Assembly (NCBI GenBank): GCA_963700655.1
Contig: CAVOYJ010000002.1
Location: forward strand, 11,212 to 75,211
Source of the DNA: an uncultured Actinomycetes bacterium
GTDB taxonomy: Bacteria; Actinomycetota; Thermoleophilia; Solirubrobacterales; Solirubrobacteraceae
Direction: 5' to 3'
Length of the DNA stretch: 64,000 nucleotides
Each line of letters begins with the position of its first letter. Position 1 is the stretch's first letter. Positions 11,654 through 53,060 of this stretch are shown here, piece by piece. The translations under genes and the position numbers were made by a program. The notes below the pieces were generated by a model. The model was not told the DNA's origin and ran no database searches. It was given only the letters and a program-made list of their open reading frames with translations.

Positions 11654-11681
11654 GCTACGTTTGATCGCGAAAGGAACACCG

Positions 11682-11900: not shown

Positions 11901-11939
11901 ACCCGATTCTCCGCCCCATCTGACCGCCCCGGATCCATC

Positions 11940-14264: not shown

Positions 14265-14290
14265 CGCGCAGCCGCCCGCCCTCCCGACGC

Positions 14291-17164: not shown

Positions 17165-17446
17165 CACCCCCGAGTACGTCAGACGTGGCCTGGAACCCCT
17201 CGGAGACCGTCCTCGCATGAGCGGATCCTACGTGCCCGTCGCCCCGGCAGCTCGACACCGCAGCGGAGGAGGCGATCCGCACCGCGGAACCGATTCCCCA
17301 GCCGACGAGCCGACCGCGCGGACGACCGGCGCGTCCTGGTACTCGGTCCTGCGGGTCTCGAACCAGGGCGACGCCACCCGATGCTGCCTGCGAGAACAGC
17401 CGCGGGGTACCGGCGCGCATTCCCCCGGCAGGTACGCTCACGCACG

Positions 17447-35034: not shown

Positions 35035-35127
35035 GCGCGAACGCTACGCCAGACCGCCGCGGGGCGCGGCTCCTCGTCCGTAGAAGGCGCGGTGGCCCTC
35101 GCCGCTCGCGCGGCATACGGTGATGAC

Positions 35128-36549
35128 GTGAGCGACCACGTGACACCGCTCGACGCGATCTTCCTCGAGCTCGAGGAGGCCGACGAGGGCTCGCACATGC
35201 ACATCGGTGCGGCGCTGATCTTCGACCCGCTCCCGGGCCGCGGGACGCCGACGCTCGAGGATCTCCGGGGGCTGGTCGACGAGCGCCGGCCCGCGCACAT
35301 GGCGCGCTTCCGGCAGGTCCTGTCCGCACCCCACACGGGCGGCCTGTCCTGGCCGACGTGGGAGGAGGGTCCCGGCGATGAGGCGCTGCGCGAGCATGTG
35401 CGCCACGCGACGCTGCCCGCTCCCGGCGGTGAGACGGAGCTGCTCGAGTGGCTCGGCGACTTCTGGTCGCACCGGCTCGACCGCCGCCGGCCGCTGTGGG
35501 AGATGGTGCTGCTCGACGGCCTGCAGGACGGGTGCTGGGCGCTCGTGAACAAGACCCACCACGCGCTCGTGGACGGTGTGGGGTCGGTGGACGTCGGGCA
35601 CGTCCTGCTCGACACCGACCCCGAGCCGCCGCCCGCGCCGCCGACACCCGAGCCGGAGCCCGCGCCTGCGCCCGACGCGGCCGAGCACGGCGACCCCGCG
35701 CTCGTGCGGATGCTGAAGGTCCCGCCGTCGCTGCTGCTGCGCGGCGCGCGCGGCGGCGCCGACCTGGCGGTGCACCCGCGGCGCGTGCTGGACGTCGCCG
35801 AGCGCTCGCGGGCGGCCGTCGAGGTGCTGGTGCGCGACGAGCTGCTGCCGGCACCCTCGACATCGCTGAACGCCCCGCTCGCGGCGACCCGCCGGTTCGC
35901 GGTCGTGCGCGCGTCGCTCGCGGACGTCAAGGGCGTGAAGGACGCGCTCGGCGGGACCGTGAACGACGTGGTGCTCGCGGCGTGCACCGGCGCGCTGCGC
36001 ACGCTGCTGCTCGCGCGCGGCGAGCAGCCGCCCGAGGGGTTCCGCGCGATGGTGCCGGTGAACGTGCGCAGCGCCGGCGAACAGCTCGCGCTGGGCAACC
36101 GGATCACCTCGCTGTTCCTGCAGCTGCCGGTCGGTGTCGCGGACCCCGCCGAGCGCTACGCGGCGGTCGTCGCCTCCAGCGCCGCGCTGAAGTCCGGCAG
36201 CGCCGGGAAGGGCGGCAGCACGATCATGGACGTCGTCTCGCTCGCGCCGCCCGTCCTGCACGCGGTCGCCGCGCGCGCGCTGTTCTCCCCGCGGCTCTTC
36301 AACGTCACGATCACGAACGTCCCGGGCCCGCAGCTGCCGCTCTACGCACTCGGCTCGCACCTGCGCGAGATCCTCCCGCTCGTCCCGCTGTTCGCCGACC
36401 ACGCCGTCGGCATCGCGATCGTCAGCTACGAGGGACGACTGGCCTTCGGCATCAACGCGGATGCGACCGCCATGGGCGACCTCGACGTGCTCGTCGGCGG
36501 CCTCGAGGACGCGCTCGCCGAGCTGCGCGCACTCGCGACCGCCGCCTGA
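35128..36549 (+). CDS. Wax ester synthase / diacylglycerol acyltransferase (WS/DGAT)
   Basis: Catalytic motif HHALVDGVGS, N-terminal LDAIFLELEEADEGSHMHIGAALIF, C-terminal NVPGPQLPLY. The GTG at 35128 is preferred over the ATG at 35092. Confidence 0.85.
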   Translation: MSDHVTPLDAIFLELEEADEGSHMHIGAALIFDPLPGRGTPTLEDLRGLVDERRPAHMARFRQVLSAPHTGGLSWPTWEEGPGDEALREHVRHATLPAPGGETELLEWLGDFWSHRLDRRRPLWEMVLLDGLQDGCWALVNKTHHALVDGVGSVDVGHVLLDTDPEPPPAPPTPEPEPAPAPDAAEHGDPALVRMLKVPPSLLLRGARGGADLAVHPRRVLDVAERSRAAVEVLVRDELLPAPSTSLNAPLAATRRFAVVRASLADVKGVKDALGGTVNDVVLAACTGALRTLLLARGEQPPEGFRAMVPVNVRSAGEQLALGNRITSLFLQLPVGVADPAERYAAVVASSAALKSGSAGKGGSTIMDVVSLAPPVLHAVAARALFSPRLFNVTITNVPGPQLPLYALGSHLREILPLVPLFADHAVGIAIVSYEGRLAFGINADATAMGDLDVLVGGLEDALAELRALATAA

Positions 36550-37972
36550 GCCTCACGCTGAGACGGCGCGCGCCGGTGGGCGCGCGCGGCGTCGCGCCGG
36601 CGGTCGCCGCGAGCTCCCGCAGCGCCGCTTCGATCCCGTCGCCGAGGGCGAGCACGTCGAGCGGGCCGTCTGCGTCACCGGTGACGCCGAACCCCAGCGC
36701 GCCGTCGTAGGAGTAGATCGCGACGCCCATGCGCACGTGCCCGGCGAGCGGCACGTACGGGTAGGCCTCGAGCATCCGGCGACCGGCGAGGTACAGCGGG
36801 TGCTGCGGGCCCGGGACGTTCGTGGTGACGGTGTTCACGCTGCGCTGCGGCAGCCGCGTGGCGATCCGCAGGCCCAGCCCGAGCGCCAGCTCGGGCGCGA
36901 ACACGCCCATCGACGTCAGGACCTGGCCGGCGTCCGCCTCGTGCGAGGCCTTCAGCATCCGCATGTGCGCACTCACCGCCCGCAGGCGGGCGACGGGATC
37001 CTCGATGCCCAGCGGCAGGTCGGCGAACATCGCCGAGACGCGGTTGTCCGGGACGCCCGCTGCGTCGCGGGTGCGCACGGAGACCGGCACGAGCGTGCGC
37101 ACGGTGCGGTCCACCGGCTCCCCGGCCTCGGCGAGCAGCGTGCGCAGACCGCCGGTGATCGCGGCGAGGACGACGTCGTTGACGCTGAGCGCGTCGCCGT
37201 GCGCGCGGCGGATGCGGCGAACGTCGTTCAGGTCGCCGCGGGCCCAGCCCCAGCTGCGGTGCGGGCCGAGCGGGCCGTTGAGCGCCGACGGCGCCGGGGC
37301 CCGCGCGAGCCCGCTGAACGCGGCCAGCCCGCGCGCGGTGGCCGCGGCCCGCGCGGCCAGCAGACCGGGAGCGCCGAACGCCGTCGCGACGCTGCGCAGA
37401 TCGCCCCAGGGCCGGCGGGCGCGGTCGGCGAGCGCGGCGCTCACGAGGCTCACGGCGCCGGGTTCGGGCTCAGGCGCCCACGTGACCGGCTCGGGCGCCG
37501 GCGGATCGCGCTCCTCGTCGAGCAGGACGCCCAGCAGCGACGAGCCGGAGATCCCGTCCACCATCGCGTGATGGAGCTTCGCGATCAGCGCCCAGCGGCG
37601 GCCGGACAGCCCCTCGACGACCCACAGCTCCCACAGCGGCCGCGCGCGGTCGAGCTGCTGCGACATGACGCGGCCGATGAGCGCGCGCAGCTCGGCGTGC
37701 CCGCCCGGCGCGGGCAGCGCGGTGCGGCGCACGTGGTAGCCGAGCGCGAAGTGCGGGTCGTCGTGCCAGACCGGGCGCCCGGCCTCCAGCGGCACGAAGC
37801 GCACGCGCTGGTGGTAGCGCGGCGCGCTGTGCAGCTTGGGCGCGAGCGCGGCGAGCAGCTCGTCGTGCGGCGGCGGCGGACCCTCGAACACCCCGATCAG
37901 GCCCAGATGCATGTGACTGACGTCGTCCTCGACGTGCAGGAACGAGGTGTCCAGCGGGCTCAGGCGCTCCAT
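36452..37972 (-). CDS. Wax ester synthase / diacylglycerol acyltransferase (WS/DGAT), second copy
   Basis: ATG at 37970-37972 after GGAGGAG. LDTSFLHVEDDVSHMHLGLIGVF, HHAMVDGISG, NVPGPQHPLY. Its 3' end overlaps the convergent paralog by 98 nt as given. Confidence 0.85.
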   Translation of the reverse strand: MERLSPLDTSFLHVEDDVSHMHLGLIGVFEGPPPPHDELLAALAPKLHSAPRYHQRVRFVPLEAGRPVWHDDPHFALGYHVRRTALPAPGGHAELRALIGRVMSQQLDRARPLWELWVVEGLSGRRWALIAKLHHAMVDGISGSSLLGVLLDEERDPPAPEPVTWAPEPEPGAVSLVSAALADRARRPWGDLRSVATAFGAPGLLAARAAATARGLAAFSGLARAPAPSALNGPLGPHRSWGWARGDLNDVRRIRRAHGDALSVNDVVLAAITGGLRTLLAEAGEPVDRTVRTLVPVSVRTRDAAGVPDNRVSAMFADLPLGIEDPVARLRAVSAHMRMLKASHEADAGQVLTSMGVFAPELALGLGLRIATRLPQRSVNTVTTNVPGPQHPLYLAGRRMLEAYPYVPLAGHVRMGVAIYSYDGALGFGVTGDADGPLDVLALGDGIEAALRELAATAGATPRAPTGARRLSVRLRRRSRVRAARRARPRGRRRARRGRPWRSHPR

Positions 37973-38051
37973 GGTCGTCTCCTCCGGCTCGTCTCCGAGC
38001 CTCGTCGCTCGCAGCCGTCGCGCGCATCCGTGGTTGGCCGCAGGATGGAGG

Positions 38052-38816
38052 TCAGCCGCTCTCGGGCGCACGTCCGGCGACGAACTGCGCAAGACCGCTG
38101 ACGCGCCGGCGCACCGCGGTCGCGCCGCGCTCGCTCAGTGCTGCCGTCAGCTCGTCGCGGCCGAAGATGCGCACCCCGCTCAGCGCTCGCACGACGGTCG
38201 CCGACGGCCGCACCGGCAGCGGCCCGCGGTGCACGGACGTGAGCAGCGCCAGACGCCCACCGGGAACGAGGACGCGGACGATCTCGTCGATCGCAGCGAG
38301 CGGATCCTCAATCAGGTAGAGCGCCGCGAAGCAGCAGACGGCATCGAACGAGCCCGCGCCGAACGGCAGCGCGCACGCGTCGCCGCGGACGTAGGCGACG
38401 TTGGCGGCGGGCTGCGCGGCGACCGCGCGCTCGAGCATCGTCGCGGATGCATCGAGGCCGACCGCGAGGCCGTCCGGGCCGATGGCCTCGCCGAACCCGC
38501 GGGTGAACGCCCCCGTCCCGCAGGCGACGTCGAGCACGCGCTCGCCGCCGAGCAGGCCCAGCATGTCCACCGCGATCGCGTGCTCACCGCGCATGCCGGG
38601 ACCTCCCACGCCCATCAGCGCGCGGCCGAGCACCGGACGCCAGAGCCGTTCGTAGACCAGCGGCAGCGCGCGACCGACCATCAGCCGCTGACCGGGATGG
38701 ACACCGGTCGGATCCCGGTCGCCGAGCACATCGACGTACCCGGCGGCGACGGCGGCGCGGGTGCGGGCTTCGCGGGTGCAGAGCGCGAGCGTGCGGTTGA
38801 TCGCCTCGCCGCTCAC
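38052..38816 (-). CDS. Class I SAM-dependent methyltransferase
   Basis: Motif I VLDVACGTGAF, post-I GLDAS, motif II FDAVCCFAALYLIED, motif III LVPGGRLAL. GTG at 38816 chosen as start. Confidence 0.8.
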   Translation of the reverse strand: MSGEAINRTLALCTREARTRAAVAAGYVDVLGDRDPTGVHPGQRLMVGRALPLVYERLWRPVLGRALMGVGGPGMRGEHAIAVDMLGLLGGERVLDVACGTGAFTRGFGEAIGPDGLAVGLDASATMLERAVAAQPAANVAYVRGDACALPFGAGSFDAVCCFAALYLIEDPLAAIDEIVRVLVPGGRLALLTSVHRGPLPVRPSATVVRALSGVRIFGRDELTAALSERGATAVRRRVSGLAQFVAGRAPESG

Positions 38817-39271
38817 GGCGCGCTCTCCCACGGGACGTGGCCCTCGGAGCCCGCCGCCGGAGCCGTCCGCCCACACCGCTCGCACTCCATGGTCACGGCG
38901 ATGAACGCTACGCCACCCGCGGTCACGTCCGTGACCCGGCCGGATTTCAGCCGCCTCGCCCTGCGAGTTCGCCACCCGGACCGACGATGATGAGGTTGCG
39001 CACGCCGCGCAACGCCGGCCGGGCCAAAGCGCCCAAAAAGTGCTCATCCCTGCGCGATCCTGCACGGGAAACCGCAGTTCGGGCGCGCAAAGCTGCGCAA
39101 ACCCGCATCGGTCATCCGGCCACGACGACCCGGCACCGATGGGCGGAGCGTTCCCCGGAAGGCGTCCCCCGGGGCTCGGGACCACTCCCGCGCCCCGGAC
39201 GGACACGGTGCGTGACACGACCGAGGCCGGCCACGGGAGCGATCACCACCCCATCGGAGTTCCGCTCGCGG

Positions 39272-39292
39272 GACTCCTCTCCCCAAGGAGTC
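39272..39292 (+). promoter_or_regulatory. Hairpin sequestering the Shine-Dalgarno of the first small exported-protein gene
   Basis: GACTCCT (39272-39278) pairs with AGGAGTC (39286-39292). The 3' arm contains the AAGGAG SD, 7 nt before the ATG at 39298. Confidence 0.35.
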
Positions 39293-39297
39293 TCGCA

Positions 39298-39766
39298 ATG
39301 AGCATCATCCGCAGCAAGCGCAGCGCACCGTCATCGTCGGCGTCATCGGCGCCCTCGTGCGCTCGCCGGCGCCGCGATCGCATTCTGGACCACGTCCGGC
39401 ACCGGCCGGGCACCGCCTCGGTCGGCACCGACGCGGCGTCACGTTCAGCGCCGTCACGTTCGCGGCCACCCTGTACCCGGGCGGCTCGACCGCAGTCAGC
39501 TTCACGATCACGAACGCTCCGCGAGCGCGCGCGGTCCGGTCGACAAGGTCGTCGCCGGACACGTCGACCGACGGCGGCACCGGCATCACGGGTCTGCCGG
39601 TCGGCTGCCTCGCAGCCGACTTCACGTTCCCGGACCTAACGGTCAACCAGGCGATCCCCGCGAGCGGCAGCACGACCCAGTCCGGCACGCTCCGTTCGCC
39701 AACACGGCCGTCAACCAGGACGCCTGCAAGAACGCGTCCCCGGTCCTGCACCTGAAGGCCGCCTAG
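39298..39766 (+). pseudogene. Small exported protein A (TM + 'AFWTTSGTG' N-terminus, 'NQDACKNA' C-terminus), at least 6 frame changes
   Basis: Spliced by eye across the three frames: MSIIRSKRS | RTVIVGVIGALV | ALAGAAIAFWTTSGTG | GTASVGTDA | GVTFSAVTFAATLYPGGSTAVSFTITNA ... GITGLPVGCLAADFTFPDLTVNQAIPASGSTTQSGTL | FANTAVNQDACKNASPVLHLKAA*. Confidence 0.55.
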
Positions 39767-39855
39767 CCGAGCACGCACCCGGATCCGGGACCGTGGAGGG
39801 GGCGCCCGGCGATTCGGCCGCCCCCTCCACACCCGTTCCGGGAGCACCTCCGCGA

Positions 39856-40804
39856 ATGCGCTCGCGAACCCTCATCACTGACTCGCCGGCCGCTCCGCCG
39901 CGGTCCTCGCCGTCCTGCTGCTCTGCGCTGGGCTCGCGGACGCCACGGGCGTGCGCTGGCGCCGCTGCCCGGCAGCGCTGCGGCCGCCAGCCCAGGCGCC
40001 GCGACACCGGCGCCGAGGACGGTCGGCGGCACGCCCGTCGCCGACCCGCGGGTCGCGAGCCGATCATCCGCCGCCGCTCGGCCGATCTCGGCCTCGCCCG
40101 CAACGCGGACGATCCGCCCGGGCGCGACGACGACCTTCACGATCCGCGTGCAGCCGACCCGCACCGTGCGCAGCTACCGGCTGCAAGCTCTGGCGCGCGC
40201 CGAAGGACGTGACGCTGCGCCTCAATCGCAAGCGGACGCGGCGCACGGCCACGCTGACCGTGCGCACCGCGGCCGGGCATCCGCACTCGGGCGCTACACG
40301 CTGCGCTCAGCGCCTGGCCGCGACGGCGCCGCGGCACCACGACGCCAGCCCGAAGGTGCTGCGCGCGCAGCATGACGCTCGTCGTCGCGCTCCCCGCGCC
40401 GGCGGTGCCGCAGGCCCCGACCGCGTCCTCCCGGCAAGGTCTACGCCGCCGGCGACGTCACGAGCCGCTCGCGCCCGGTGTCGCGCGACCGGTGAACCTC
40501 GTGCTCACGAACGCGCCTCAGCTCGCCGGTCGAGGTGACGGCGCTGACCGCGACCGTCACCGGCGTGACGCCGGCGCCGGGCGGTGCGTGCACGGCGGCC
40601 GACTTCACGACGATGCCCGGCGAGCCTGACCGTCCCGCTGCGCGTGGCGGCCGAGACGAGCGTGTACGCTCGCCGACGCTCGGCCTCCCGCGCAGCGCCT
40701 GGCCGGCGGTGCTGATGATCGACCGACCCGGTGAGCCAGGACGGCTGCAAGGGCGCGATCGGTGTCGCTGCGCTTCGACGTCCAGGCCGGCGGCATCCGG
40801 GTGA
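39856..40804 (+). pseudogene. Exported protein B (paralogous C-terminal domain), multiple frame changes
   Basis: Pieces in different frames: MRSRTLI, LAGRSAAVLAVLLLCAGLADA, ISASPATRTIRPGATTTFTIRVQPTRTV, WRAPKDVTLRLNRKRTRRTATLTVRTAAG, GRYTLR, RPVNLVLTN, VTALTATVTGVTPAPGGACTAADFTT, SQDGCKGA, VSLRFDVQAGG. The TGA at 40802-40804 overlaps the next GTG. Confidence 0.45.
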
Positions 40805-41304
40805 CCCGCCGCAGGCTGCCCACACGCGTCGCCGTTGCGGCCGTCGTCCTCGGCCTCGCCCTTCCGGGCGGGGTCGCTTTCGCGTTCTGGACTGCTCCGG
40901 CGCCGGCGCCGGCGGCGCGGCCACCGGCCAACGCCCTACCGCTCACCATCAGCGCGGGGACGCCGTCGGCGCGGCTGCACCCCGGCGGCCAGGGCGACGT
41001 CGCGCTCACGCTCTCAGAACCCCAACACGTTCGCCGCCCGCGTGCCCTCGCTCACTCTCGATACGACCCAGGGCAGCGGCGGATTCGCCGTCGACGCGGC
41101 GCACAGCGGCTGCGGGCTCGGCGCGCTGAGCTTCACGACGCAGACCAACGGCGGCAGCGGCTGGACCGTTCCGGCCCGGGTCGGGGCGACTAACGGCACG
41201 GCTCAGCCTGAACCTGACGTCGTGCGCCGTCGCGATGAGCCTCGTCCGCCGCGGACGCCTGTCAGGGCGCCGCGTTCACGGTCTTCGTGCAGGTCGGTCC
41301 CTGA
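40801..41304 (+). pseudogene. Small exported protein C (paralog of A), multiple frame changes
   Basis: VTRRRLPTRVAVAAVVLGLALPGGVAFAFWT | NALPLTISAGTPSARLHPGGQGDVALTLS | NPNTFAARVPSLTLDTTQGSGGFAVDAAHSGCGLGALSFTTQTNGGSGWTVPARVGATNGT | ...AADACQGAAFTVFVQVGP*. The stop overlaps the next ATG (TGATG, 41302-41306). Confidence 0.5.
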
Positions 41305-44300
41305 TGGACCGCGCTGGGGCGCGCCACTCGTCGCGGTCCTCGCGGGGCTTTTCGTGCTCGCTCTGCGCTCGCCGTGGTCGCGCACGCCGATCTGGACGCC
41401 GGGGCCGACCAGCGGCCCGGGCGGCGGCCTCGGCGGCGACCGTCGGCGCCGGCTCGACCCCGACGGCGACTCGTCTCGCCCGGCCGCGCGGTCACGGTCG
41501 CGTGGAGCGCGGCACGCTGTCGGACGGCCAGCCCGTCGACGGCTATCTGGTGCGCCGCTACGACGCGGCGACCGGCACGTCCTCGCGAGCCGTCGGCCTA
41601 GGCTGCACGGGGACGATCGCGGCCACGTCGTGCGTCGAGGCGGCGGTCCCGCCCGGCACGTGGCGGTACACCGTGACGCCGCTGATCGGGGTCAACTGGC
41701 GGGGCGACCGAGAGCCCGCGCAGCGGCATCGTGACGATCGGCGCCGCGACGCTGACCCTCGCCACGACGCAGTTCGGCGGACCCGCGGCGTTCCCGCGGA
41801 TCACCACCGGCACGCTCACCGGCTTCGCGGCGAACGAGGGCGTCACCTACCGCCTCGACGCTGCGACCCCGCTGACCGGCTCGCCCACGTCGCGTCGGCC
41901 CGGCCGGCAGCGCGACGATCACGTCGCTCTCGATTCCCGCCGTCGCCGACGGGCCGCACACCGTCTGGGCGATCGGCAACGCACGCCGTGCCCTCGCAGG
42001 CCTCGGCCGCCATCTTCGTCGACCGCACCGCCCCGACCGTCAGCGCATTCGCGTCGCCCCGCACCCAACGGCGGCGGGCTGGAACACGTCCGGCGCCGGT
42101 GACTGTGACGCTGAGCGCCAACGACGGTGCCGGCGTCGGTGGCGGGCAGATCCGCTACACGACCGACGGCAGCGACCCGACGACCTCCGGCACCGCGCTG
42201 ACGTACACCGCGCCGCTGTCGCTGAACGTGACGACGACCGTGCGCTTCGCCGCCTCCGACGCGCTCGGCAACACGAGCGCGGTCGGCTCGCAGACCGTCC
42301 GCATCGACACGATCGCCCCGCTGAGCGCGCTCTCGCTCTCCGACGTCACCGGCGGTGTCTTCCGCGCCGGCGCGACGATCTGGTACCGCGGCGCAGCCGC
42401 CGGGTCGTTCACGCTCAGAAACGCGGTCACCGACGCCGGGTCAGGGCCCGCGGTCGAGCGCGACCGCCGCGCTCACCGGCGCCGCGACCGGCTGGTCGCA
42501 CGCGCCCGGCAGCGTCTCGACGCCCGCGGGCGGGCCGTTCACCTCCGCGCCGTTCAGCTGGACCGCCGGGACGGCGAGCGCGCCGACCGCGACGGTCACC
42601 GCCACCGACCTCGCCGGCAACGCCGCGCCGACGACCCTCACGTTCGCCAACGATCCCGCCGGCCCCGCGGGCGGCTCGGTCGATGCGATCGGCCTGGGCG
42701 GCACGGGCGCGCGCCACTCCACGTCGACGACGCTCAGCATCGGGCTCGCCAAGGGCGCCGACGCGCAGTCCGGCCTGGCGCCCACCGGCGCGCGGCTGCT
42801 GCGCGCGACGCGCGACGCTCACCTCGGCCGGGACCGTGAACGGCACCTGCGGCGCGTTCGGCGCGTTCGCCCAGGTCGGCGCGAGCGACCCGGTCATCGC
42901 CGGCGGCCGACACCGTCCCCGACCGCGCCTGCTACCGCTACCAGTACGTCGCCCCCGACAACGTCGGCAACACGACGACGTACACGAGCCCCGACATCAA
43001 GGTGGACACGACGGCGCCGAGCACGCCCGCGCTGACGCTCGGCGCCCCGACCGGCGACACCGCGATCCTGGGCTCGGTCGTGTACATCAACCCGCAGGCC
43101 GGCCGCAGCGGCGGCTTCCAGCTGCAGGCGACGGCCACCGACCTGGACTCCGGCGTGCAGCGCGTGAGCTTCCCCGCACTCGCCGGCTTCACCGGCGGGG
43201 GCGGCGACGACCTCACCTCGCCCTACCTGACGAGCTACAGCTGGGGGCCGGCCGCGACCGCGTCCGGCCCGCAGACCGTCACGGCGACCAGCAACGCCGG
43301 CGTCGACGAGCGCGCCGGCGGCCTTCACCGTCGTGCCGGACACGACCGCCCCCGCGGGCGGCGCGCTCACGGTCGGCGGCGCGCCTGCGACCGAACCGCG
43401 GTGCCGTCACGACCGTCAGCTCCACGAGCTTCCCGATCAACGCCCGCACCGACTTCACCGAAGCGCCCGGGGCGACGGCCTCCGGCCTCCTCTCGAGCCT
43501 GCTGATCCGCGACCAGTCGCCGCTCGTGAACGGCGCCTGCGGCACGACCTGGACCAGCCCCGCGACGCTCGTCGGCACGCCGGCGCAGACCGCCGCCGGC
43601 GGGATCGCGAGCGGCTGGTGCTACCGCTACACGCTCAGCGGCACCGACCGCGTCGGGAACGTGCGGTCGGTCAGCACGATCGTCCAGGTGGACACGAGCG
43701 CGCCGACGCTCGGCGCGCCCGCCGTGACGCTCGCGGCGAGCGGGCCGTTCGCGTTCGCCAGCGGCACGACCGCGTACTACAACGGCGCCGGCGGTGCCGG
43801 ATCGAGCATCACCGTGAGCACCCCGAACGCCGCCGACCCGCAGTCGGGGATCGCACGCGTCACCTTCCCGGCCCTGGCCGGCTTCAGCGGCGGGGGTGCC
43901 GACCTGACGAGCCCGTTCACCGCCACCTACACGTGGAGCGCGGCGAGCGCCGCGGGCGCGCAGAGCGTCGTCGCGACCAACGGCACGGGTCTGACCGCAG
44001 CCGCCGCCTTCACGCTCGTGCGCGACGTGACCGCCCCGGCCGGCGGCGCGCTGACCGTCAACGGGACCGGCGCGAGCGGCCCCGGATCGACGTCGACCAA
44101 CACGACCGGCGCCTTCGCGATCACCGCGCGCAGCGACTACACCGAGGCGCTCGGACCGGCCGCCGCCGGCCTTGCCGCGAGCCTGCTCGTGCGCGAGCAG
44201 GCGCCGCTCGCCGGCAACGCGTGCGGCAGCTTCGGCTCCCCGGTCACGCTCGCAGGCACCCCGGCGCAGTCCGGCCTGACGACCGGCTGCTGGCGCTACA

Positions 44301-45541
44301 CGCTGACCGGCACCGACAACGTCGGCAACAGCGCGAGCATCAGCACGACCGTGAAGGTGGACACGACCGCGCCGGTCTTCGGCGCGCCGGCGCTCGTCCT
44401 CGGCGCGAGCGGGCCGTTCGCGTTCACCAGCGGCACGACCGCCTACTACAACGGCGCCGCCGGCGCCGGGTCGAGCATCACCGTGAGCGCGCCGACCGTC
44501 GGCGACCCCGACTCCGGGCTCACCCAGGTCACCTTCCCCACGCCCGCCGGCTTCACCGGCGGCGGCGCGGACGCGAGCGCTCCCTACTCGGCGACCTACA
44601 CCTGGGCGTCAGCCACCGGCGCCGGCGCGCAGACCGTGACGGCGGCGAACACGGCCGGGCTCACCGCGAGCGCGCCGTTCACGCTCGTGCGCGACGTGAC
44701 CGCCCCGACGGGCGGCGCGCTGACCGTCAACGGCCTGGCGGCCAGCGCCGCCGGCACGAGATCGTCGACGGTGCCCCCGTCATTCACGATCGGTCTGCGC
44801 ACCGACCCTGCCGAGGCGCAGACCGCGGCGGCCTCGGGCCTGGCCGCCAGCACGCTCGTCCGTGACCAGGCGCCGCTGAGCGGCGCGACCTGCGGCGCCG
44901 TCTGGACGAACGCGACGACGATCGTCGGCACGCCGGTCCAGAACGCCGCGAGCGGGATCCTCGCCGGCACCTGTTACCGCTACACGCTCACCGGCACCGA
45001 CAACGTCGGCAACGCCGTGAGCCTGCGCACGACCGTCCTCGTCTCGCGGCTCGTGGCCACGAACGTCGTGCTCGCGAACGCGACGCGGCCCGGGCGCACC
45101 GGCACGGACGACACGGTCACGATCACCTACAGCGACGTCGTCGACGCCACCACGCTCTGCTCGACCTGGACGAACGGCTCGACGCAGCGCCTGACCGCGG
45201 ACAACCAGGTCGTCATCACGATCGCCGAGGCGGGCGCCAGCGACACGATCAGCGTCGCGACGGCGTTCGGCTGCACGATCCGCCTCGGGACGATCGACGC
45301 GAACGCCGACTACGTCTCGTCGACCGCGACCTACTTCGGTGCGGGCAGGCGGGCCTCGGAGTTCATCTGGGACCCCGCCGCCCGGACCGTGACGCTCGTG
45401 CTCGGCTCCCGGCGCAGCGGCGGGCGCAGGAACGGCGTCGCGCCCGCCGTCCCCGAGTACCTGCCCGACCCCGCGATCGCCGACCTGTTCGGGAGCACGA
45501 TCGCGCCGGGCCCGTTCACCGGCACGCTGTCGGGCTTCTAG
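41304..45541 (+). pseudogene. Giant (~1,400 aa) repeat surface protein; ~13 frame changes in 41304-43400, intact from ~43400 to 45541
   Basis: N-terminal TM PLVAVLAGLFVLAL and IWT motif. An Fn3-like segment (TLSDGQPVDGYLVRRYD...TWRYTVTPL). A chitobiase/Fn3-associated-like segment (QIRYTTDGSDPTTSGTALTYTAPLSLNVTTTVRFAASDALGN). Then three ~223-aa modules (VDTxAPxxGAPxxxLxASGPFAFxSGTTAYYNG...FTLVRDVTAPxGGALTVNG...CYRYTLTGTDNVGN). The last 2.1 kb is the tail of ORF 42683..45541. Confidence 0.6.
43002..45030 (+). repeat. Three tandem coding modules of ~670-690 bp (~223 aa)
   Basis: The anchor gtggacacg(a/g)(c/g)cgcgccg recurs at 43002, 43688 and 44357. The 669-bp spacing of the last two is in frame. 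The 686-bp spacing of the first two reflects the indels. Confidence 0.7.
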
Positions 45542-45653: not shown

Positions 45654-47001
45654 GTGGACCCCGCCACGCTCGAGCCCCGGGTGCAGGCCGTCGGCCGCGA
45701 CCTCGCGGCGGCCCTGCCGCGCGGGAGCCGGAGCCCGCTGCGGGCGCTCGACGACCGGGCGATGGACTTCGCCGCGCAGGACGACGAGCTGCGCGCCGCG
45801 CTCTTTCGCTTCGTCGACGTCGTCCCCGCCTGCCGCAGCCTCGACGACCTCGCCCGGCACCTGACGGCGTTCCTGGACGACGTGCACGAGCCGCCGCCCT
45901 CGATCGACGCGGCGCTGCTCATGGGCGGCTCGGCGGCGGGCCGCAAGGCGCTCGGCGGCGCCGCCGCCGTCGGGGTCCGGCGGATGGCGCACCGCTTCAT
46001 CGTCGGCGAGACGCCCGCCGACGCGCGGCGCGTGCTGCGCGAGTTGTGGGACGGGGGCGCCGCAGCGTCCGTCGACCTGCTCGGCGAAGCGACCGTCACC
46101 GCCGCCGAGGCCGACCGGTACGGCGCCCGCTGCGCAGCGGCGCTCGACGAGCTCGCCGGCGTCTACCGCGGGCTCGATCCCCGGCCGCTCCTGGAGCACG
46201 ACGGCGCCGGAGCGACGCCGCGCGTGAACCTCTCGGTGAAGACATCGGCGCTCACGCCGCTGCTGCGGCCGGACGCGCCGCAGCTGGGCGTCGAGGACGC
46301 GGCGGCGCGACTGCGCCCGCTGCTGCGCAGCGCCCGTGATCACGGCGCCCACCTGCACATCGACATGGAGTCCTTCGACTCGCGCGAGGCGGTCACCGAC
46401 CTCGTCCTGGGGCTGCTCGCCGAGGACGAGTTCGCCGACGGGCCGTCCGCGGGCGTCGTGCTGCAGGCCTACCTGCGCGAGTCGCCCGAGCAGCTCGAGC
46501 GCCTGCTGGCCTGGACCGGCGAGCGCCGGCGGTCCGGCCCGCTGACGGTGCGGCTCGTCAAGGGCGCCTACTGGGACCACGAGGTCGTTGAGGCCGTGCA
46601 GCACGGCTGGTCGCCCCCGGTCTTCGAGGTCAAGGCCGACAGCGACCGCAACTTCGAGGCGCTCACGCGACGGCTGCTGGAGGCGCGCGCCGCGGGAGCG
46701 CCGGTGCGCGTGGCGATCGCCTCGCACAACCTGCGGTCGGTCGCGCACGCCGTCGCCGCGAACGAGCTGGCGGGGCGGGCCGGCCGATCTGGAGGTCCAG
46801 GTGCTGCGCGGCCTGGGCGACGACCTGCAGGCCGCCCTCGCGGCGACCGGCCGTCGCGTGCGGACCTACTGCCCCGTCGGCGACCTCGTCGCCGGGATGG
46901 CCTACCTCGTGCGCCGCCTGCTGGAGAACACGAGCAACGAGAGCTTCCTGCACGATCAGGCGGCGGGCGTGCCGCTCGACGACCTGCTGGCGGCGCCGTG
47001 A
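45654..47001 (+). pseudogene. Proline dehydrogenase, frame broken near 46775-46786
   Basis: The PRODH text (…LFRFVDVVPA…VDLLGEAT…NLSVKTSAL…HLHIDMES…VRLVKGAYWD…IASHNLRS) is in frame 0. The tail (ADLEVQVLRGLGDDLQ…YCPVGDLVAGMAYLVRRLLENTSNESFL…) is in the frame of ORF 46588..47001. Confidence 0.8.
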
Positions 47002-48578
47002 CCCTCGGCGCGTTCGCCAACGAGCCGCTCGCCGAGCTGCGCCGCGCACCCGAGCGCGAACGGCTGCTCGCGGCGCTGCGTGCGCTCGACGCCGAGCCGC
47101 CGCTGCGCGCCGCGGTCTGGATCGGCGAGGAGCAGCGCCTGGACGACGCGCTCGTCTCGACCGACCCCGGCGACCCCGGGCGAGTCGTCGCCACGGCGCC
47201 GTGCGCGAGCGCTGCGGAGGTCGAGGCCGCCGTCGCGACCGCGCGCGCGGCGTTCGCGGACTGGGCGGCCACCCCGGCCACCGACCGCGCCGGCGCGCTC
47301 CTCCGCGCCGCGGCGCTGCTGCGCGAGCGCCGCCCGCGCCTCACCGCGCTCGCCGTGCGCGAGTGCGCCAAGCCGTGGGACCAGGCGGACGGCGACGTCT
47401 GCGAGGCGATCGACTTCCTCGAGTACTACGCGCGCGCTGCCGTCACCCTCGCGGAGCGCGACGCCGGCGGCGAGCTGCTGCAGCCACCGGGAGAGCGCAA
47501 CGCGATGACCCACCGGCCGCGCGGCGTCTGCGGCGTCATCGCGCCGTGGAACTTCCCGCTCGCGATCCCGCTCGGCATGACCGCGGCGGCGCTTGCGACC
47601 GGCAACTGCGCGCTGCTCAAGCCCGCCGAGCAGGCGCCCGGCTGCGCGCTGGAGCTCGTCCGCGCGCTGCGCGAGGGCGGCGTCCCCGCGGGCGCGGTCG
47701 CGCTGCTTCCCGGCGCGGGCGAGACCGGGGCGGCGCTGGCCCGGCACCCGGACGTGCAGACGCTGGCGTTCACCGGCTCGGTGCCGGTCGGCCTGGACAT
47801 CATCGCGACCGCGGCGAGCGCGCCCGCGCGGGGCGCCAGGCACCTGCCGCGCGTCGTCGCCGAGCTCGGCGGGAAGAACTGCGTGATCGTCGACGCCGAC
47901 GCGGACCTCGACGACGCGGTGCCGGGGATCGTCGGGTCCGCGTTCGCCTACGCGGGCCAGAAATGCTCGGCCGCCTCGCGGGTGCTCGTGCACGAGGCGA
48001 TCGCGGACGCGCTGCTCGAACGCCTGGCGGGCGCCGCCGAGGCGCTCGTCGTCGGACAGGCCGACGCATTCGGCACGACCGTTTCCCCGGTCATCGAGCG
48101 CAGCGCGCAGGAGCGCGTCGCCCGGTACGCACAGCTCGCCGCCGCGACCGGACGCGTCGTCACCGGCGGCGAGGTCGCCGTTCCCGCCGGCGGCTGGTTC
48201 TGCGCACCGGTCGTCGCGACCGACCTGCCGGCCGACTCGCCGCTGCTGCACGAGGAGATCTTCGGCCCCGTGCTGGCGGTCGAGCGCGTCGCCGGCGTCG
48301 ACGAGGCGTGCGACCGGGTCGACGCACTGGCGTTCGCGCTGACAGGCGGGCTCTACTGCCGCAACCCGCACACCGTCGAGCACGTCGTGGCGCGCTCCCC
48401 GGTGGGGAACCTCTACGTCAACCGCCCGATCACCGGCGCGATGGTCGGCCGCCAGCCGTTCGGCGGCAACCGCCTGAGCGGGACCGGCTCCAAGGCGGGC
48501 GGGCCCGACTACCTCCTGCACTTCACCGAGCCGCAGGTCGTCACCGAGAACACGGTGCGCCACGGGCTCGTCGTCTGA
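46998..48578 (+). CDS. pruA: L-glutamate gamma-semialdehyde (1-pyrroline-5-carboxylate) dehydrogenase
   Basis: The GTG at 46998 overlaps the PRODH stop (GTGA). FANEPLAELRR N-terminus, aldehyde dehydrogenase motifs ELGGKN and catalytic Cys in AGQKCSAASR. Confidence 0.85.
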   Translation: MTLGAFANEPLAELRRAPERERLLAALRALDAEPPLRAAVWIGEEQRLDDALVSTDPGDPGRVVATAPCASAAEVEAAVATARAAFADWAATPATDRAGALLRAAALLRERRPRLTALAVRECAKPWDQADGDVCEAIDFLEYYARAAVTLAERDAGGELLQPPGERNAMTHRPRGVCGVIAPWNFPLAIPLGMTAAALATGNCALLKPAEQAPGCALELVRALREGGVPAGAVALLPGAGETGAALARHPDVQTLAFTGSVPVGLDIIATAASAPARGARHLPRVVAELGGKNCVIVDADADLDDAVPGIVGSAFAYAGQKCSAASRVLVHEAIADALLERLAGAAEALVVGQADAFGTTVSPVIERSAQERVARYAQLAAATGRVVTGGEVAVPAGGWFCAPVVATDLPADSPLLHEEIFGPVLAVERVAGVDEACDRVDALAFALTGGLYCRNPHTVEHVVARSPVGNLYVNRPITGAMVGRQPFGGNRLSGTGSKAGGPDYLLHFTEPQVVTENTVRHGLVV

Positions 48579-49366: not shown

Positions 49367-52300
49367 CTACCCGCGCAGCGCCGCGACCGTCGCCGGCCCG
49401 CGTCGCGTCGCGCCGCGCACGCCGACGACCCGCACCCGCACCCGCGTCCCGGCGCGCACCCCGCGCACGGTCACGACCCGCCCGCCGCGGCGCGGGGTGA
49501 ACAGCAGTGAGCGCCCGTCGCTCAGCCGCACCGTCGCCTCGTAGCGCGACGCACCGGCCGCCCGGCCCCACTGCACCCGCACCGCGCCGCGCCCTGCGCG
49601 GACGACCCGCACGCGCGCGACCCGGCCCGGCCGCGCCTGTGCCGCGCTGAACCGCGCCACCACGAGGTTCGCCCGCGGGAGCCCGTCCTGCTCGACGACG
49701 GCCACGATCGACCGCCTGGTCCCGCGCGCGTCCGACGGGCGGAACCGCAGCACGCCGCTCGTCCCGCGCGCGACCGCGAGCGTGCGCTCCCCGCCGGGCG
49801 CCCGCTCCACGAACGTCACGCGCTGCCCGGCGATCGGCCGGATCGCGTATCGGTAGGCCAACCCGCCGCCCGCACCCGGCGCCACCCGCCTCACCGTCAC
49901 CGACGGATCCGCCAGCCCCGCCGCGCGCCGCAGCGACGTCACGGCGCTCGACCCCGCCCGCGGCACCACCCGCCATGTCCCCGCCGACGGCTTTGCGACC
50001 GCGAAGTACGCCGTCCCGTCGACCGGAGAGCGGAACCCCGTCACCCCGCGCGCGAGCAGCCGCCCGGTCGCCGGCAGGACGAACGACTCGCCCTTGGGCC
50101 CGCGCAGCTCCACGTCCGGCGCCACGCCGCCCGTGCCCGCGACCGCGAGCGAGAACGCCGGCAGCCCCGCGGGCACCGCGAACGCCCGCTCGCCGGCCTG
50201 CGCCGCCGAGCCGCCCGCGGCACCGGCCGCCGCCACCGTCCGCCACTTCCCGAACCCGCACCCGGTGAACACGCTCGCGCGCGTGGCGATCGCGATCGCC
50301 GCCGCGAGCGGGTTCACGAGCGACGCGGGCGGCGGCCAGTCGAACCCGGCGCCCACCTCGACGGTGTCCACCAGCAGGTCGACGGACAGGCAGAATGCCG
50401 CGCCGCGATCGGACACGATCCCGCGGCCGCCCGCGCAGAAGTACCCGGCGATGCACCCGCGCTGCGCGCCCTCGGCCTGGAAGTGCGGGTAGCGGAACTG
50501 CGCATCGAGACTGCCGCTGAGGCTGAAGACCTTCGCGTCGAAGTCGAACCTCCCGCCGAACGCGACGTACCCGGTGTCCTCCACGCGCAGGTACTCCTCG
50601 GCGATCGGCAGGCAGAACAGGCTGCCGGTGCCCTTGAAGTCGAACGTCACCGGGGAGGGGTAGAAGTGCAGCAGCGCCTGTCCGTCGACCTTGTAGGGCG
50701 CGCACTCCACCGGCGCGCCGACGGTCACGGTCGCGCCCGCTCCCAGCTCGGTCACCGGCGGGAACAGCGCGAAGGACCCGTTGATCCCGAACAGGTCGAC
50801 CCCCGGCGCGAGCGGGATGAACGGCGGCCCGGTGTACGCGCCCGCGAAGCTCTGGAACTGCAGCGTGCGCTTGCCCGGCGGCGCCGCCAGCACGAGCGCG
50901 GCCTCGAGCGTCGGCCCGGCCCCGTCGGGGGCGACCTGCACCTTCGCGCTGCCGGCCAGCCGCAGCGGGTTGTCGCTGTAGACGAGATCCGCGCGATCGA
51001 CGCCGACGCCCGCGAGCTTGAACTGCCCGACGTTCACGTTCAGCGCGTCGAGCTTCGCGCCGGCCGGGTTCGACAGGCGGATCGTCGCCTCACCGGTCAC
51101 GCCGCCGAAGATCCCCGGCAGCTCGAGGTGCGTGGCGAGCAGCGACCCGCGCCGCACGATGTCGAGCGACGTGCGGCCCTGCGCCATGTCGAGCCCGGCG
51201 GTGAACGGCACGTCGCGCGTGAGCACGAAGTCGGTGACGCGCACCTGCTTCTGGGACAGGTCCACCTGCAGCTTCAGCGGCCCGCGCCGCAGCGTCACGC
51301 CGTTGACCGAGACGATCGCGTCGGAGCTGAGGACGTAGCTCGCGGGGTTGGCGATCACGCCGCCGACGACGACGACGATCGACGCGCCCCTGGCCGGCTG
51401 GTAGTCGACCCCGTTGATCCGCACCGGCTGCGTCGAGGCGTACGTCGTGCCGAAGAGGCTCGGGAAGACGGACTGGCTGACCTGCAGCGCCTTCGAGACG
51501 GCGCTCGTCCGTGCCGCCGCGCCGCGGCCGATCGTCACGTTGCGGTTCAGGGCGACCGAGGCCGCCTTGAGGAAGTACGGGTTGAGCACGTCGCGCTCGG
51601 CCTTCGGCAGGTCGGCCTGCGCGGTCTCCTTCAGGCAGCCGATCACGCTGACCAGGCCGGCGATCAGTTCGCTGACGCAGCCCGCGGGCGGGCCGCCCCC
51701 GGGCGTCGCGTCGCCGGGCTGCTGCCCGGGCGGGGGCCGGCACAGGCCCACCGGCACGTTCGCCGTCTGCGCCGCGCTGATGAGCTTGCCGCCGCCGACC
51801 CGCCGGGCGAGCGCGGAGAGCCCGGCCGGCGCGGTGCCGCGCGCCACGCCCAGGCTCGTCGCGCCGGTCGCGGACACGCCGCTCGTGTCGACCGCGGTCA
51901 CCGACACGGCTCCGGTGTACGCCTTGGTGAAGCGCTGTTCGAGCACGGGCGCCGCGCCGTTGCACTCCGCGTCGGTCGAGCCGTTGCCGTCGAGGTCCCA
52001 GAGGTACCGGTCGATCGCCGCGCCGCCGGCGGCGCTCGCGGTGAGCGCGACCGGGACCCCGGCCTTCAGCGCACCCGCCGGCGCGCTGACCGACACCTTC
52101 AGCGGCGTCGTTCCCGCGCCGCCGCCGCCACCCGGGGGCGCCGGCACCGCGTCCACCTCGGGCGGGCTCGTCGCCGCGGGGTCGTGCAGGCGCCCGATCT
52201 CCGCCGCGCTCAGCGCGCGGCCGTACACGCGCACCTCGTCCAGCGATCCGCTGAACCGATACGGGCAGACGAAGTCGTCGGCGTACCCGCCGACGACGAA

Positions 52301-52942
52301 CTTGCGCGAGCCGGGCAGGGCGTAGCTGATCGGCCCGCCCGGCCCGGGGGCGGCGCCGGGCACCTCGACCCCGTCGACGTACAGCCGCGCGGTCGTCCCG
52401 TCGAAGGTCCCGGCGACCGCGTGCCAGTTGCCGTCGTAGAGCGCGGTGCCGGCGTTCGGTGAGGCCGAGACCCCGTTCGTGCTGTTCCAGACGTAGAACT
52501 GCAGCCCGAGGTTCCCGGGCGCGTAGCCCGTGTAGATCGCGTACGAACCCGCCGTCGAGCAGTCGTTGGCGCCCTTCGTGACGAGGTACTGCAGCGGGCC
52601 CGGGTAGCCGGCGCGCTTGACCCACAGCGCGACCGTCAGCGTCTGCGGCTCGAGCGCGGCGAAGTTCGTCGTCGCGGGCGGCGGACCGGTGACGCGCCGG
52701 GAGCCGGTCACGTCCAGTCCGCTGCCGAACCGCCCCGGGACCTGGGTGAACGGGGTCTCCGAGGTACCGCTCAGGCCGTTGCCCGAGAGGTCCGGCGTCG
52801 TCGGCGGATCACCCGGGATCACCTGGTCCAGCGGCCAGCGCAGGGCCAATCCCGTCTCGGCCGCCGCGGGCGCGGCCAGCGTGAGCGCCAGAAGCACGGA
52901 CGTGATCCCGGTGCGCAGCAGGCTCGGCGGGCGCCGGGGCAC
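49367..52942 (-). CDS. Secreted giant protein: LamG (laminin-G/concanavalin-like) + PKD + ~750-aa unassigned region + C-terminal Fn3-like domain
   Basis: GTG at 52942 after GGAGGA, signal LLALTLAAPAAAE. LamG text (LTVALWVKR...YDGNWHAVAGTFDGTTARLYVDGVEV...GSLDEVRVYGRALSAAEI). PKD text (YLWDLDGNGSTD). C-terminal RVQWGRAAGASRYEATV. Uninterrupted frame. Confidence 0.8.
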   Translation of the reverse strand: MPRRPPSLLRTGITSVLLALTLAAPAAAETGLALRWPLDQVIPGDPPTTPDLSGNGLSGTSETPFTQVPGRFGSGLDVTGSRRVTGPPPATTNFAALEPQTLTVALWVKRAGYPGPLQYLVTKGANDCSTAGSYAIYTGYAPGNLGLQFYVWNSTNGVSASPNAGTALYDGNWHAVAGTFDGTTARLYVDGVEVPGAAPGPGGPISYALPGSRKFVVGGYADDFVCPYRFSGSLDEVRVYGRALSAAEIGRLHDPAATSPPEVDAVPAPPGGGGGAGTTPLKVSVSAPAGALKAGVPVALTASAAGGAAIDRYLWDLDGNGSTDAECNGAAPVLEQRFTKAYTGAVSVTAVDTSGVSATGATSLGVARGTAPAGLSALARRVGGGKLISAAQTANVPVGLCRPPPGQQPGDATPGGGPPAGCVSELIAGLVSVIGCLKETAQADLPKAERDVLNPYFLKAASVALNRNVTIGRGAAARTSAVSKALQVSQSVFPSLFGTTYASTQPVRINGVDYQPARGASIVVVVGGVIANPASYVLSSDAIVSVNGVTLRRGPLKLQVDLSQKQVRVTDFVLTRDVPFTAGLDMAQGRTSLDIVRRGSLLATHLELPGIFGGVTGEATIRLSNPAGAKLDALNVNVGQFKLAGVGVDRADLVYSDNPLRLAGSAKVQVAPDGAGPTLEAALVLAAPPGKRTLQFQSFAGAYTGPPFIPLAPGVDLFGINGSFALFPPVTELGAGATVTVGAPVECAPYKVDGQALLHFYPSPVTFDFKGTGSLFCLPIAEEYLRVEDTGYVAFGGRFDFDAKVFSLSGSLDAQFRYPHFQAEGAQRGCIAGYFCAGGRGIVSDRGAAFCLSVDLLVDTVEVGAGFDWPPPASLVNPLAAAIAIATRASVFTGCGFGKWRTVAAAGAAGGSAAQAGERAFAVPAGLPAFSLAVAGTGGVAPDVELRGPKGESFVLPATGRLLARGVTGFRSPVDGTAYFAVAKPSAGTWRVVPRAGSSAVTSLRRAAGLADPSVTVRRVAPGAGGGLAYRYAIRPIAGQRVTFVERAPGGERTLAVARGTSGVLRFRPSDARGTRRSIVAVVEQDGLPRANLVVARFSAAQARPGRVARVRVVRAGRGAVRVQWGRAAGASRYEATVRLSDGRSLLFTPRRGGRVVTVRGVRAGTRVRVRVVGVRGATRRGPATVAALRG

Positions 52943-53060
52943 GCGGCGATCGTCCTCCAGATGGTCGCCCGGCGCAACTGACCCGCGATTCACCGACGGC
53001 CCGCCGACGACGCTGCCCCCGCCTTCGCGGAGATCCTCGACGTCAGTTATCGTCGCCGCC

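Follow-up and report, generated by a model that had tools for sequence, protein, structure and literature searches.

A conserved, unannotated surface-protein cassette of Solirubrobacterales and its possible assembly into a chaperone-free donor-strand fibre

What kind of surface structure, if any, is encoded by a run of four genes that carries no name in Pfam or NCBIfam? The question is raised by positions 39298-45541 of a 64,000-nt stretch of DNA (contig CAVOYJ010000002.1, positions 11,212 to 75,211 of the forward strand; assembly GCA_963700655.1) from an uncultured member of the Solirubrobacteraceae; we refer to the whole stretch as the window and to the genes as A, B, C and D. A sequence-only reading, made without database searches, had proposed that the four genes form one unit of three paralogous small exported proteins and a giant repeat protein, possibly specifying a TasA-like or pilus-like fibre. 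We find that the block is conserved across many genomes, and that a putative donor strand and its candidate acceptor domain are distributed over the four products in a complementary manner. A fibre or pilus-like structure remains the best reading of this arrangement, although it is inferred from sequence, and the resemblance to TasA that had been suggested alongside it proved weak.

A conserved cassette read through damaged frames

A genome scan for gene A identified 34 loci, all of them in metagenome-assembled genomes (MAGs), mostly from Conexibacter or unclassified Actinomycetes, with a few from Acidimicrobiales and Chloroflexi. In approximately 25 MAG loci from Solirubrobacterales/Conexibacter-like bacteria, Acidimicrobiales and Chloroflexi, A belongs to a cassette with the order A, GC-rich hairpin, B, (C), D. 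Among the 28 non-redundant loci with A, a B-type gene lies within 155 nt after A in 24, and a D-type gene overlapping B by 4 nt is found in at least 17; A spans ~150-180 aa, the gap 11-155 nt, B 200-554 aa and D 255-1705 aa. Distant members of the A family (35-42% identity) also sit in cassettes, ordered A-B-D at locus L043 and A-C-B at L042, and the flanking genes vary between cassette loci. The full block recurs in related genomes, with three loci (L017, L019 and L022) colinear to the window in addition to the cassettes found elsewhere. None of A, B and C is covered by a Pfam or NCBIfam model, in keeping with the sequence-only reading, which could not name a described system of this composition. 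On the evidence of gene order and sequence conservation, the locus is a conserved, unannotated surface-protein cassette. Its elements in the window are as follows, with an arrow marking predicted cleavage.

39285-39290, plus strand: Shine-Dalgarno-like AAGGAG, 7 nt upstream of the ATG of gene A, read directly as ...CCCCAAGGAGTCTCGCAATG
39298-39766, plus strand: gene A, ~155 aa, beginning MSIIRSKRS and ending HLKAA before the stop, its frame broken by several 1-bp indels
39374-39406, plus strand: predicted AxA signal-peptidase site and start of the mature N-terminus of A, AIA↓FWTTSGTG
39793-39830, plus strand: GC-rich hairpin between A and B, with a 12-bp core stem and no U-tail
39856-40804, plus strand: gene B, ~312 aa, beginning MRSRTLITDS, its stop inside the GTGA of 40801-40804
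40801-41304, plus strand: gene C, ~163-167 aa, a paralog of A with the motif AFA↓FWT and the Cys-pair domain
41304-45541, plus strand: gene D, ~1405-1412 aa, with signal and motif ..↓IWTPGPT at 41387-41410
42930-45041, plus strand: tandem modules of D, three of ~223-231 aa and a partial fourth, transferred from the D protein of L019 by tblastn, with approximate boundaries at 42930, 43616, 44288 and 44972
45059-45538, plus strand: C-terminal domain of D, ~160 aa, kept in the divergent D proteins of L014, L018 and L020

Across the cassette, the coupled genes B, C and D overlap, start to preceding stop, by 1-4 nt; in the window these overlaps are the GTGA at 40801-40804 between B and C and the TGATG at 41302-41306 between C and D, both of which are present as the sequence-only reading had quoted them. 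The motifs it had picked out by eye could also be located, namely AIAFWTTSGTG (39374-39406), AFAFWT (40876-40893) and PIWTPGPT (41387-41410) at the N-termini, NQDACKNA (39713-39736), SQDGCKGA (40734-40757) and AADACQGA (41248-41271) around the C-terminal Cys, and the partner Cys at 39600-39629, 40580-40612 and 41105-41137. The products end in ...HLKAA (A), ...AASG (B), ...VQVGP (C) and ...GTLSGF (D). The single co-oriented unit that had been proposed is supported, in that starts and stops overlap and the products are exported, beta-rich paralogs followed by a giant repeat protein.

The frames of this unit need stitching, as had been recognized from the start. The window has a G+C content of 70-77%, and the codon phase given by G+C at third codon positions (GC3) switches every ~100-300 nt between 39.3 and 43.3 kb and is constant from 43.3 to 45.5 kb, with GC3 of 0.8-1.0 within each frame segment; in a three-frame translation the motifs of the locus are scattered over different frames. 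A blastn search with the region retrieved three colinear loci over its full ~6.3 kb, L017 (80% identity), L022 (77.5%) and L019 (77.2%). L017, the nearest, is itself frameshifted and not usable as a reference. All four genes are uninterrupted in L019, which comes from a Solirubrobacterales MAG (A, 160 aa, at 6014-6496; B, 312 aa, at 6579-7517; C, 163 aa; D, 1405 aa, at 8002-12219) and whose k141 contig name suggests a short-read assembly, and all four are likewise intact in L022, where D lies at 12040-16257. Relative to L019, 60 indel runs in the window have a length not divisible by three, 43 of them insertions and 17 deletions; the corresponding counts are 38 in L017 and four in L022. In the window these one-base indels cluster at 39235-43400, with 57 of the 60 runs in the first 4.5 kb of the alignment to L019, and the 2 kb beyond are free of them.

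Decaying pseudogenes or non-coding sequence, in which these breaks would be biological, might be suspected from ~60 frame-breaking indels within 4.2 kb and from the broken state of L017. This explanation is very improbable, given that L019 and L022 are intact across all four genes, that nucleotide identity to L019 is even (0.71-0.81) over broken and unbroken parts alike, that GC3 is kept within each segment, that insertions outnumber deletions, and that a compensated frame slip also occurs in the adjacent putA (open reading frame [ORF] 45654-48578, slip at 46600-47000, with the true frame visible in ORF 46588-47001). As the orthologous loci L019 and L022 are intact, we conclude from the comparison that the ~60 frame breaks of the window are assembly errors and that the genes are real; the sequence-only reading had allowed that the small ORFs might be non-coding, and the stitched frames proved to be conserved. 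The indel pattern fits an unpolished long-read metagenome consensus, the long-read platform being suggested by the record names of the closest relatives, and the clustering of the indels together with the putA slip points to a locally unpolished assembly. Pfam and NCBIfam scans of the hand-stitched window proteins yielded nothing useful, and a scan of 38.9-46.0 kb for sigma-70 promoters and U-tailed terminators was uninformative, as expected at 75% G+C.

A shared N-terminal motif and a shared Cys-pair domain

Proteins A, C and D have in common an AxA signal-peptidase site followed by [YF][WF]T-x-x-G-x-G-x-G-x-A-x-V-G. Ala occupies position -3 in 32 of 34 A and 20 of 22 D sequences, and position -1 in all 34 A and all 22 D sequences. 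Aromatic residues at +1 and +2 precede Thr at +3 (34/34 A), after which A carries Gly at +6 and +8 in 34 of 34 sequences and Gly, Ala and Val at +10, +12 and +14 in at least 31 of 34, while D carries G/A at +6 to +12 in 82-95% of sequences and Val at +14 in 17 of 22. The odd positions from +5 to +13 are S/T, so that in A an S/T residue alternates with G/A/V from +5 to +16. The N-termini of A and D, proteins that are otherwise unrelated, align in hhalign with a probability of 98.6% (E 7e-16). This period of two is a β-strand signature, and A, C and D are predicted to be cut by signal peptidase at AxA. The sequence-only reading had assigned the motif to all four proteins; it is present in three of the four, B being the exception.

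Stitched A retrieves 134 database homologs at E <= 0.01, all annotated as 'hypothetical', whose named sources are Conexibacter or Solirubrobacteraceae MAGs, and a cluster look-up of the family returned no named or cultured-organism member. An exhaustive profile search yielded 96 representative clusters at E <= 1e-30; the 5,358 hits of the A profile are not taken as the size of the family, as DUF11 repeat proteins inflate that count. Invariant or near-invariant features of the family are A-x-A before [YF][WF]T, then G-x-G-x-G-x-A-x-V-G, L-Y-P-G, an N, G-C-x-A-x-D-F and N-Q-D-A-C-K-x-A. Among the homologs, no variation is seen in the two Cys, the PG, the N or the A/T/G/G residues of the N-terminus. 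The two Cys may form an intramolecular disulfide. An AlphaFold 2 (AF2) model of the A homolog P0047 (mean predicted local distance difference test score, pLDDT, 80) comprises an N-terminal helix (residues 9-33) and a confident seven-strand sandwich, between which the motif segment (residues 34-42) is unstructured, with pLDDT < 50.

The A domain appears closest to DUF11/CARDB-type sandwiches and would belong to their fold group. The A profile matches giant arrays in the proteins P0122 (25 stretches) and P0125 (31 stretches), strongly so through the summing of repeats; the A domain and DUF11 repeats share a 'PG...N-x-G/S' strand pattern, and the Foldseek matches of the A model include TRAP-beta, whose fold is also among the Pfam matches of DUF11 repeats. 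Unlike these arrays, A is a single-domain protein with a conserved signal and strand and a C-terminal N-Q-D-x-C-K motif; single A proteins do not match DUF11 (PF01345) at E <= 0.1, and CARDB (PF07705) is matched by one of 34 members, at E 0.075. P0122 is 4421 aa long, has repeats identified as DUF11 (PF01345) and ends in an LPPTG-like anchor; P0125 is 5172 aa long.

B departs from this design, and its departure is the most informative feature of the locus. The sequence-only reading had counted three small paralogs with the A-[FI]-W-T motif, a description that holds for A and C and fails for B, which at ~312 aa is larger and has no YWT motif. B begins with a basic and hydrophobic segment acting as an ordinary signal or anchor (in L019, ...LVSAGLASA↓AGV), often followed by a Pro/Ser/Gly-rich linker, after which come a beta domain (Big_13-type immunoglobulin [Ig] domains in many lineages) and a C-terminal A-like domain ending in SQDGCKGA. 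Only these C-terminal ~125 aa resemble A, with an hhalign probability of 99% (E 2e-18, 106 columns). C, by comparison, is a paralog of A, the L019 protein being 34% identical to the A region (E 5e-11). It is present in the window clade (L017, L019, L022) and in L030, L038 and L042. Its place is between A and B in L042, whereas L030 and the window clade have it between B and D. A second C-like match at 13029-13295 of the window falls inside a P-type ATPase gene and was rejected as spurious.

In the window clade, D consists of the signal and motif, a fibronectin type III (Fn3)-like domain, a CHB_HEX_C_1/Fn3_assoc domain, the tandem modules and the C-terminal domain. The chitobiase-C-like domain and the three ~223-aa modules noted earlier from the window were both confirmed in an ortholog: PF13290 matches with E 2e-11, the PF13290/PF13287 match covering residues 256-326, and self-comparison of L019 D revealed three modules of 223-231 aa and a degenerate fourth at 45-62% identity, with repeat offsets of 220-234 and 451-454 aa. 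The repeats are visible with fragment queries, a self blastp of whole D giving the trivial match only. Towards the C-terminus, L019 D is matched by L014 and L018 over residues 1246-1399 (~40% identity, E ~1e-21) and by L020 over residues 1226-1382 (31% identity, E 2e-13). In hmmsearch, neither the profile of the A domain nor that of the B domain matched D, and no A-like domain was thus found in it.

Gene A is also set apart by the hairpin that follows it. The 106-nt A-B intergenic stretch of the window folds at -63.3 kcal/mol (z = -4.4), and in 30 of 31 loci the stop of A is followed, after 10-35 nt, by a comparable hairpin with stem runs of 8-21 bp (at least 10 bp in 29 loci); sequences differ between loci while the structure is kept, and no U-tail is present. 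A partial terminator or intra-operon attenuator, or an mRNA stabilizer, are possible roles. The hairpin after A, together with the translational coupling of B, C and D, suggests that A is produced in larger amounts than the other three. Orphan copies of A without B or D occur in L015 and L023, of which the L015 copy has the hairpin; L015 and the full cassette of L022 share contig CAWDUW010000003.1 and hence a genome.

Donor-strand fibre, anchored complex or divergent TasA

How could these products act together? We consider it nearly an even prospect that the locus encodes a self-contained, chaperone-free surface fibre held together by donor-strand complementation, in the manner of TasA/TapA or BsaA. 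In such a fibre, A, C and D would be exported and cut by type I signal peptidase past the conserved A-x-A, exposing an N-terminal strand in which [YF][WF]T precedes an alternation of S/T with G/A/V. The strand of one subunit would then enter the Ig-like A domain (~110 aa, with a disulfide) of its neighbour. A, which has strand and domain and is encoded first with a hairpin behind it, would be the abundant shaft subunit, and C, also with strand and domain, a minor adaptor. B, with the domain only, would be an acceptor located at one end, probably as a cell-proximal anchor or nucleator; it is the layout of B, in which an N-terminal signal/anchor, a Pro/Ser-rich linker and variable Ig domains precede the A-like domain, that suggests which end is proximal. 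D, with the strand only, would be a donor at the other end, either a terminating adhesin-like tip or a TapA-like nucleator, with a tail of Fn3 and long, lineage-variable repeat modules.

We favour this model because motif and domain are complementary, both being present in A and C, the domain alone in B and the strand alone in D, a distribution that fits a polar polymer with satisfied ends; it is from this that we infer strand insertion, polymerization and polarity. The modular homologies (the A domain with the C-terminus of B, the A N-terminus with that of D), the motif statistics, the conservation of the cassette, and the hairpin and coupling all lend support. The precedents of TapA and of the BsaA/TasA operons described below also count in favour of the model, as does a weak similarity to TasA/camelysin that is in register over the signal, the strand and the first sheet. 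In the AF2 monomer, the unstructured motif beside a confident sandwich resembles what is reported for BsaA monomers, in which an unstructured N-terminal segment lies beside the sandwich and from models of which donor-strand exchange is predicted (PMC11580942).

Several observations weigh against a fibre of this kind. The AF2 sandwich looks complete without a donor strand, a weak objection since TasA monomers are also self-complemented, and the AF2 helix runs through AYWT (residues 9-33), so that an uncleaved membrane anchor is possible. At L042 (10001-12208), A, a C-like gene and B are followed by unrelated EutA-like genes, with no D gene seen; D may not be universal, or this contig may also be damaged. 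Foldseek of the AF2 model against the PDB returned generic Ig-like folds only (best E 0.02), with no TasA (8AUR, 5OF1), archaeal bundling pilus protein or pilin among the best 50, and PDB sequences searched by profile yielded chance matches only. The cassette has no linked gene for a dedicated peptidase, chaperone or anchor enzyme. Against the Pfam model for TasA/camelysin proteins (PF12389, Peptidase_M73; cutoff 22.5 bits), A of L019 in the window clade scores 11.4 bits and A of L022 has no match. With the signal-peptide model TIGR04088 (cutoff 19 bits), L019 A scored 15.2 bits over profile positions 1-33 of 34; in a separate scan of ten A/C/D N-termini, L019 C scored 8.1 bits and the remaining ~8-9 had no match.

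The continuous AF2 helix over residues 9-33 including AYWT, in a protein whose hydrophobic stretch is ~20 residues long, raises the alternative of a cell-envelope set that does not polymerize, in which A, C and D would keep the hydrophobic segment as an uncleaved signal-anchor, the juxtamembrane YWT-(S/T-G)n would be a shared sorting, glycosylation or interaction tag, and the proteins would form a surface adhesin complex with B, itself a secreted or anchored partner. Weak NCBIfam matches to the single-pass anchors FliL, Rv0361 and CU044_5270 point in the same direction, as does the likeness of the A domain to the DUF11/CARDB repeats of large surface proteins that are not fibres, and an S/T-rich stretch may in general be a site of O-glycosylation. 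However, the near-invariant Ala at -3 and -1 in A and D is a classic signature of signal peptidase I, the periodic pattern of G/A against S/T with its invariant Gly exceeds what a glycosylation linker would need, and an anchored complex offers no obvious reason why B should carry the domain alone and D the motif alone, or why a hairpin should follow A. We regard such a complex as the main rival of the fibre, though a rather unlikely one on balance.

A different question is whether the proteins are simply divergent relatives of a known fibre subunit. The TasA system of Bacillus subtilis (tapA-sipW-tasA) is alike in having an exported beta-sandwich subunit with an N-terminal strand that could insert into the next subunit, and an accessory protein that shares only this strand, TapA there and D here. 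TapA, whose N-terminus is similar to the donor strand of TasA, was proposed to supply the first strand (PMC9674648; the same precedent in PMC10151520), and minor proteins are made at a lower level than the major one (PMC9674648, PMC10151520), as would be the case here. Both systems place an aromatic residue right after cleavage (A↓AF in TasA, A↓YW here), and both have an 'L-x-PG...N-x-S/G' first strand and an 'N-x-x-x-G-A' last strand. That the proteins are bona fide members of the TasA/camelysin (Peptidase_M73) or BsaA families, exported through a SipW encoded elsewhere in the genome, which would make the locus an ordinary biofilm-matrix operon of the TasA type, could be argued from one of 34 family members, P0093, passing the PF12389 cutoff (26.5 bits), with matches at E <= 0.1 in four of 34; from the 15.2 bits of L019 A on TIGR04088 over 33 positions; from an hhalign comparison of the A-family alignment with a 30-sequence TasA alignment that is in register over 77 columns (E 0.0026), covering the signal, the cleavage site and the L-x-PG...N strand; and from the great divergence of the superfamily, which is described as comprising 2,172 proteins (PMC11580942). 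At locus L028 (Chloroflexi MAG PMKV01000175.1), moreover, an A-B-D cassette is followed 1.2 kb further downstream by a trio at 7509-9611, made up of a TasA-like gene, the gene for a SipW-type peptidase and another TasA-like gene.

These matches, however, span only the signal and the first ~45 mature residues, that of P0093 covering residues 4-76 against profile positions 2-75 of 196, while A of the window clade stays at 11.4 bits and TIGR04088 is mostly unmatched. The hhalign probability to the TasA alignment is only 11.7%, and 3.5%, not significant, against TasA alone. At ~110 aa, and with its invariant Cys pair, the domain contrasts with the ~230-aa jellyroll of TasA, and neither 8AUR nor 5OF1 is in the Foldseek best 50. 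A six-frame regular-expression scan of the 64-kb window and the fetched loci for the S26 Ser-box found none except in L028, so that a SipW is linked to the cassette in one of ~35 loci (TIGR02228, 88 bits) and is absent from the window; L037, a relative of L028, lacks the SipW/TasA-like trio. The organization differs too, in that the gene for the major subunit opens the cassette, with a hairpin behind it, D reaches up to 1,700 aa, and the acceptor-only B has no counterpart in the TasA system. True membership of these families is therefore improbable in our view, and of the TasA/camelysin and SipW-type resemblance that the sequence-only reading had pointed to, what remains is a real but weak, in-register similarity, below the threshold of the family models in all but P0093.

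The bsa operon of Clostridium perfringens (sipW-bsaA-bsaB-bsaC) offers a further parallel, combining a small major subunit, a paralog that does not polymerize by itself and a large accessory protein in one operon, with donor-strand exchange predicted and oligomers anchored in the membrane (PMC11580942); operons with several BsaA/TasA paralogs and genes for fibronectin domains are described in the same study (PMC11580942). Unlike BsaA, our family barely matches TIGR04090 (two of 34 members, best E 0.078), its donor motif contains no Asn or Lys and so no counterpart to the isopeptide Asn/Lys of BsaA, and no vWA domain, SipW or type IV pilus genes are found nearby. The features of type IV or Tad pilins are absent as well, as the conserved site AxA↓YWT comes after the hydrophobic segment and not before it, no motif like that of prepilin peptidase was found in the window, and no Pfam pilin model was matched. 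Nor is there a signature of sortase-assembled pili: six-frame scans of the window found no sortase TLxTC in a coding context, the single match being a chance one out of context, and no LPXTG with a hydrophobic tail, in agreement with the initial observation that signal peptidase, sortase and LPXTG are all missing from the window.

In the chaperone-usher systems Fim and Pap, FimH and PapG are two-domain end subunits with a variable N-terminal domain and a C-terminal pilin domain lacking the donor strand; these systems also have adaptor subunits, a strand-bearing terminator, PapH, and a stem-loop after the major-subunit gene. By analogy of organization only, B may be likened to FimH/PapG, C to the adaptors, D to PapH and the hairpin to the stem-loop. 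No chaperone or usher gene is present here, no sequence or fold relationship was apparent, and to our knowledge the host lineage, Actinomycetota, has no outer membrane. Archaea also build chaperone-free donor-strand filaments (bundling pili of AbpA and AbpX, and cannulae) from small Ig-like subunits with ordinary signal peptides (PMC9245690). Neither the sequence nor the fold searches matched these filaments, and the present system differs in being bacterial and in having dedicated end subunits.

Put in its most specific form, the donor-strand model would make the locus an undescribed fibre of Actinomycetota (Solirubrobacterales/Conexibacter-like, with kin in Acidimicrobiales and Chloroflexi), built from a ~110-aa disulfide-bonded Ig-like subunit, with B and D setting polarity and length and with no SipW, sortase, chaperone-usher or type IV machinery. 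This fuller version we hold only tentatively.

Surroundings of the cassette and its significance

Upstream of A in one Conexibacter-like subgroup, at L039 and L040 (~6650-9830), lies a divergent pair of genes for a LuxR-type response regulator and a HisKA_3 kinase/regulator, which are possible regulators of the cassette; the window has no equivalent of this pair. Two convergent ORFs resembling wax-ester synthase/diacylglycerol acyltransferase (WS/DGAT) by eye, with overlapping 3' ends, are located upstream of the locus in the window (35092-36549, plus strand; 36452-38092, minus strand), and a WS_DGAT gene is also found upstream of the cassette in L002. A further large surface or secreted protein, of 1291 aa and predicted to be exported, is encoded 4 kb away (49367-53242, minus strand) and has a Laminin_G_3 (concanavalin-like) domain (E 6e-25). 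Elsewhere in the window, a 285-aa protein (16361-17218, minus strand) combines a hydrophobic segment at its N-terminus with a collagen triple-helix repeat (PF01391, 28.6 bits).

Should the fibre model prove wrong, the cassette is still a widespread, conserved and unannotated surface-protein operon. If the model is true, the cassette would be a compact new member of the chaperone-free donor-strand filaments, alongside TasA, BsaA, the archaeal bundling pili and cannulae, and would extend such filaments to abundant, almost uncultured soil Actinomycetota. At least three protein families that now pass only as 'hypothetical', among them that of A with its 96 clusters, would then gain names. With each end of the fibre encoded by a gene of its own, nucleation, termination and the control of length would be directly testable.

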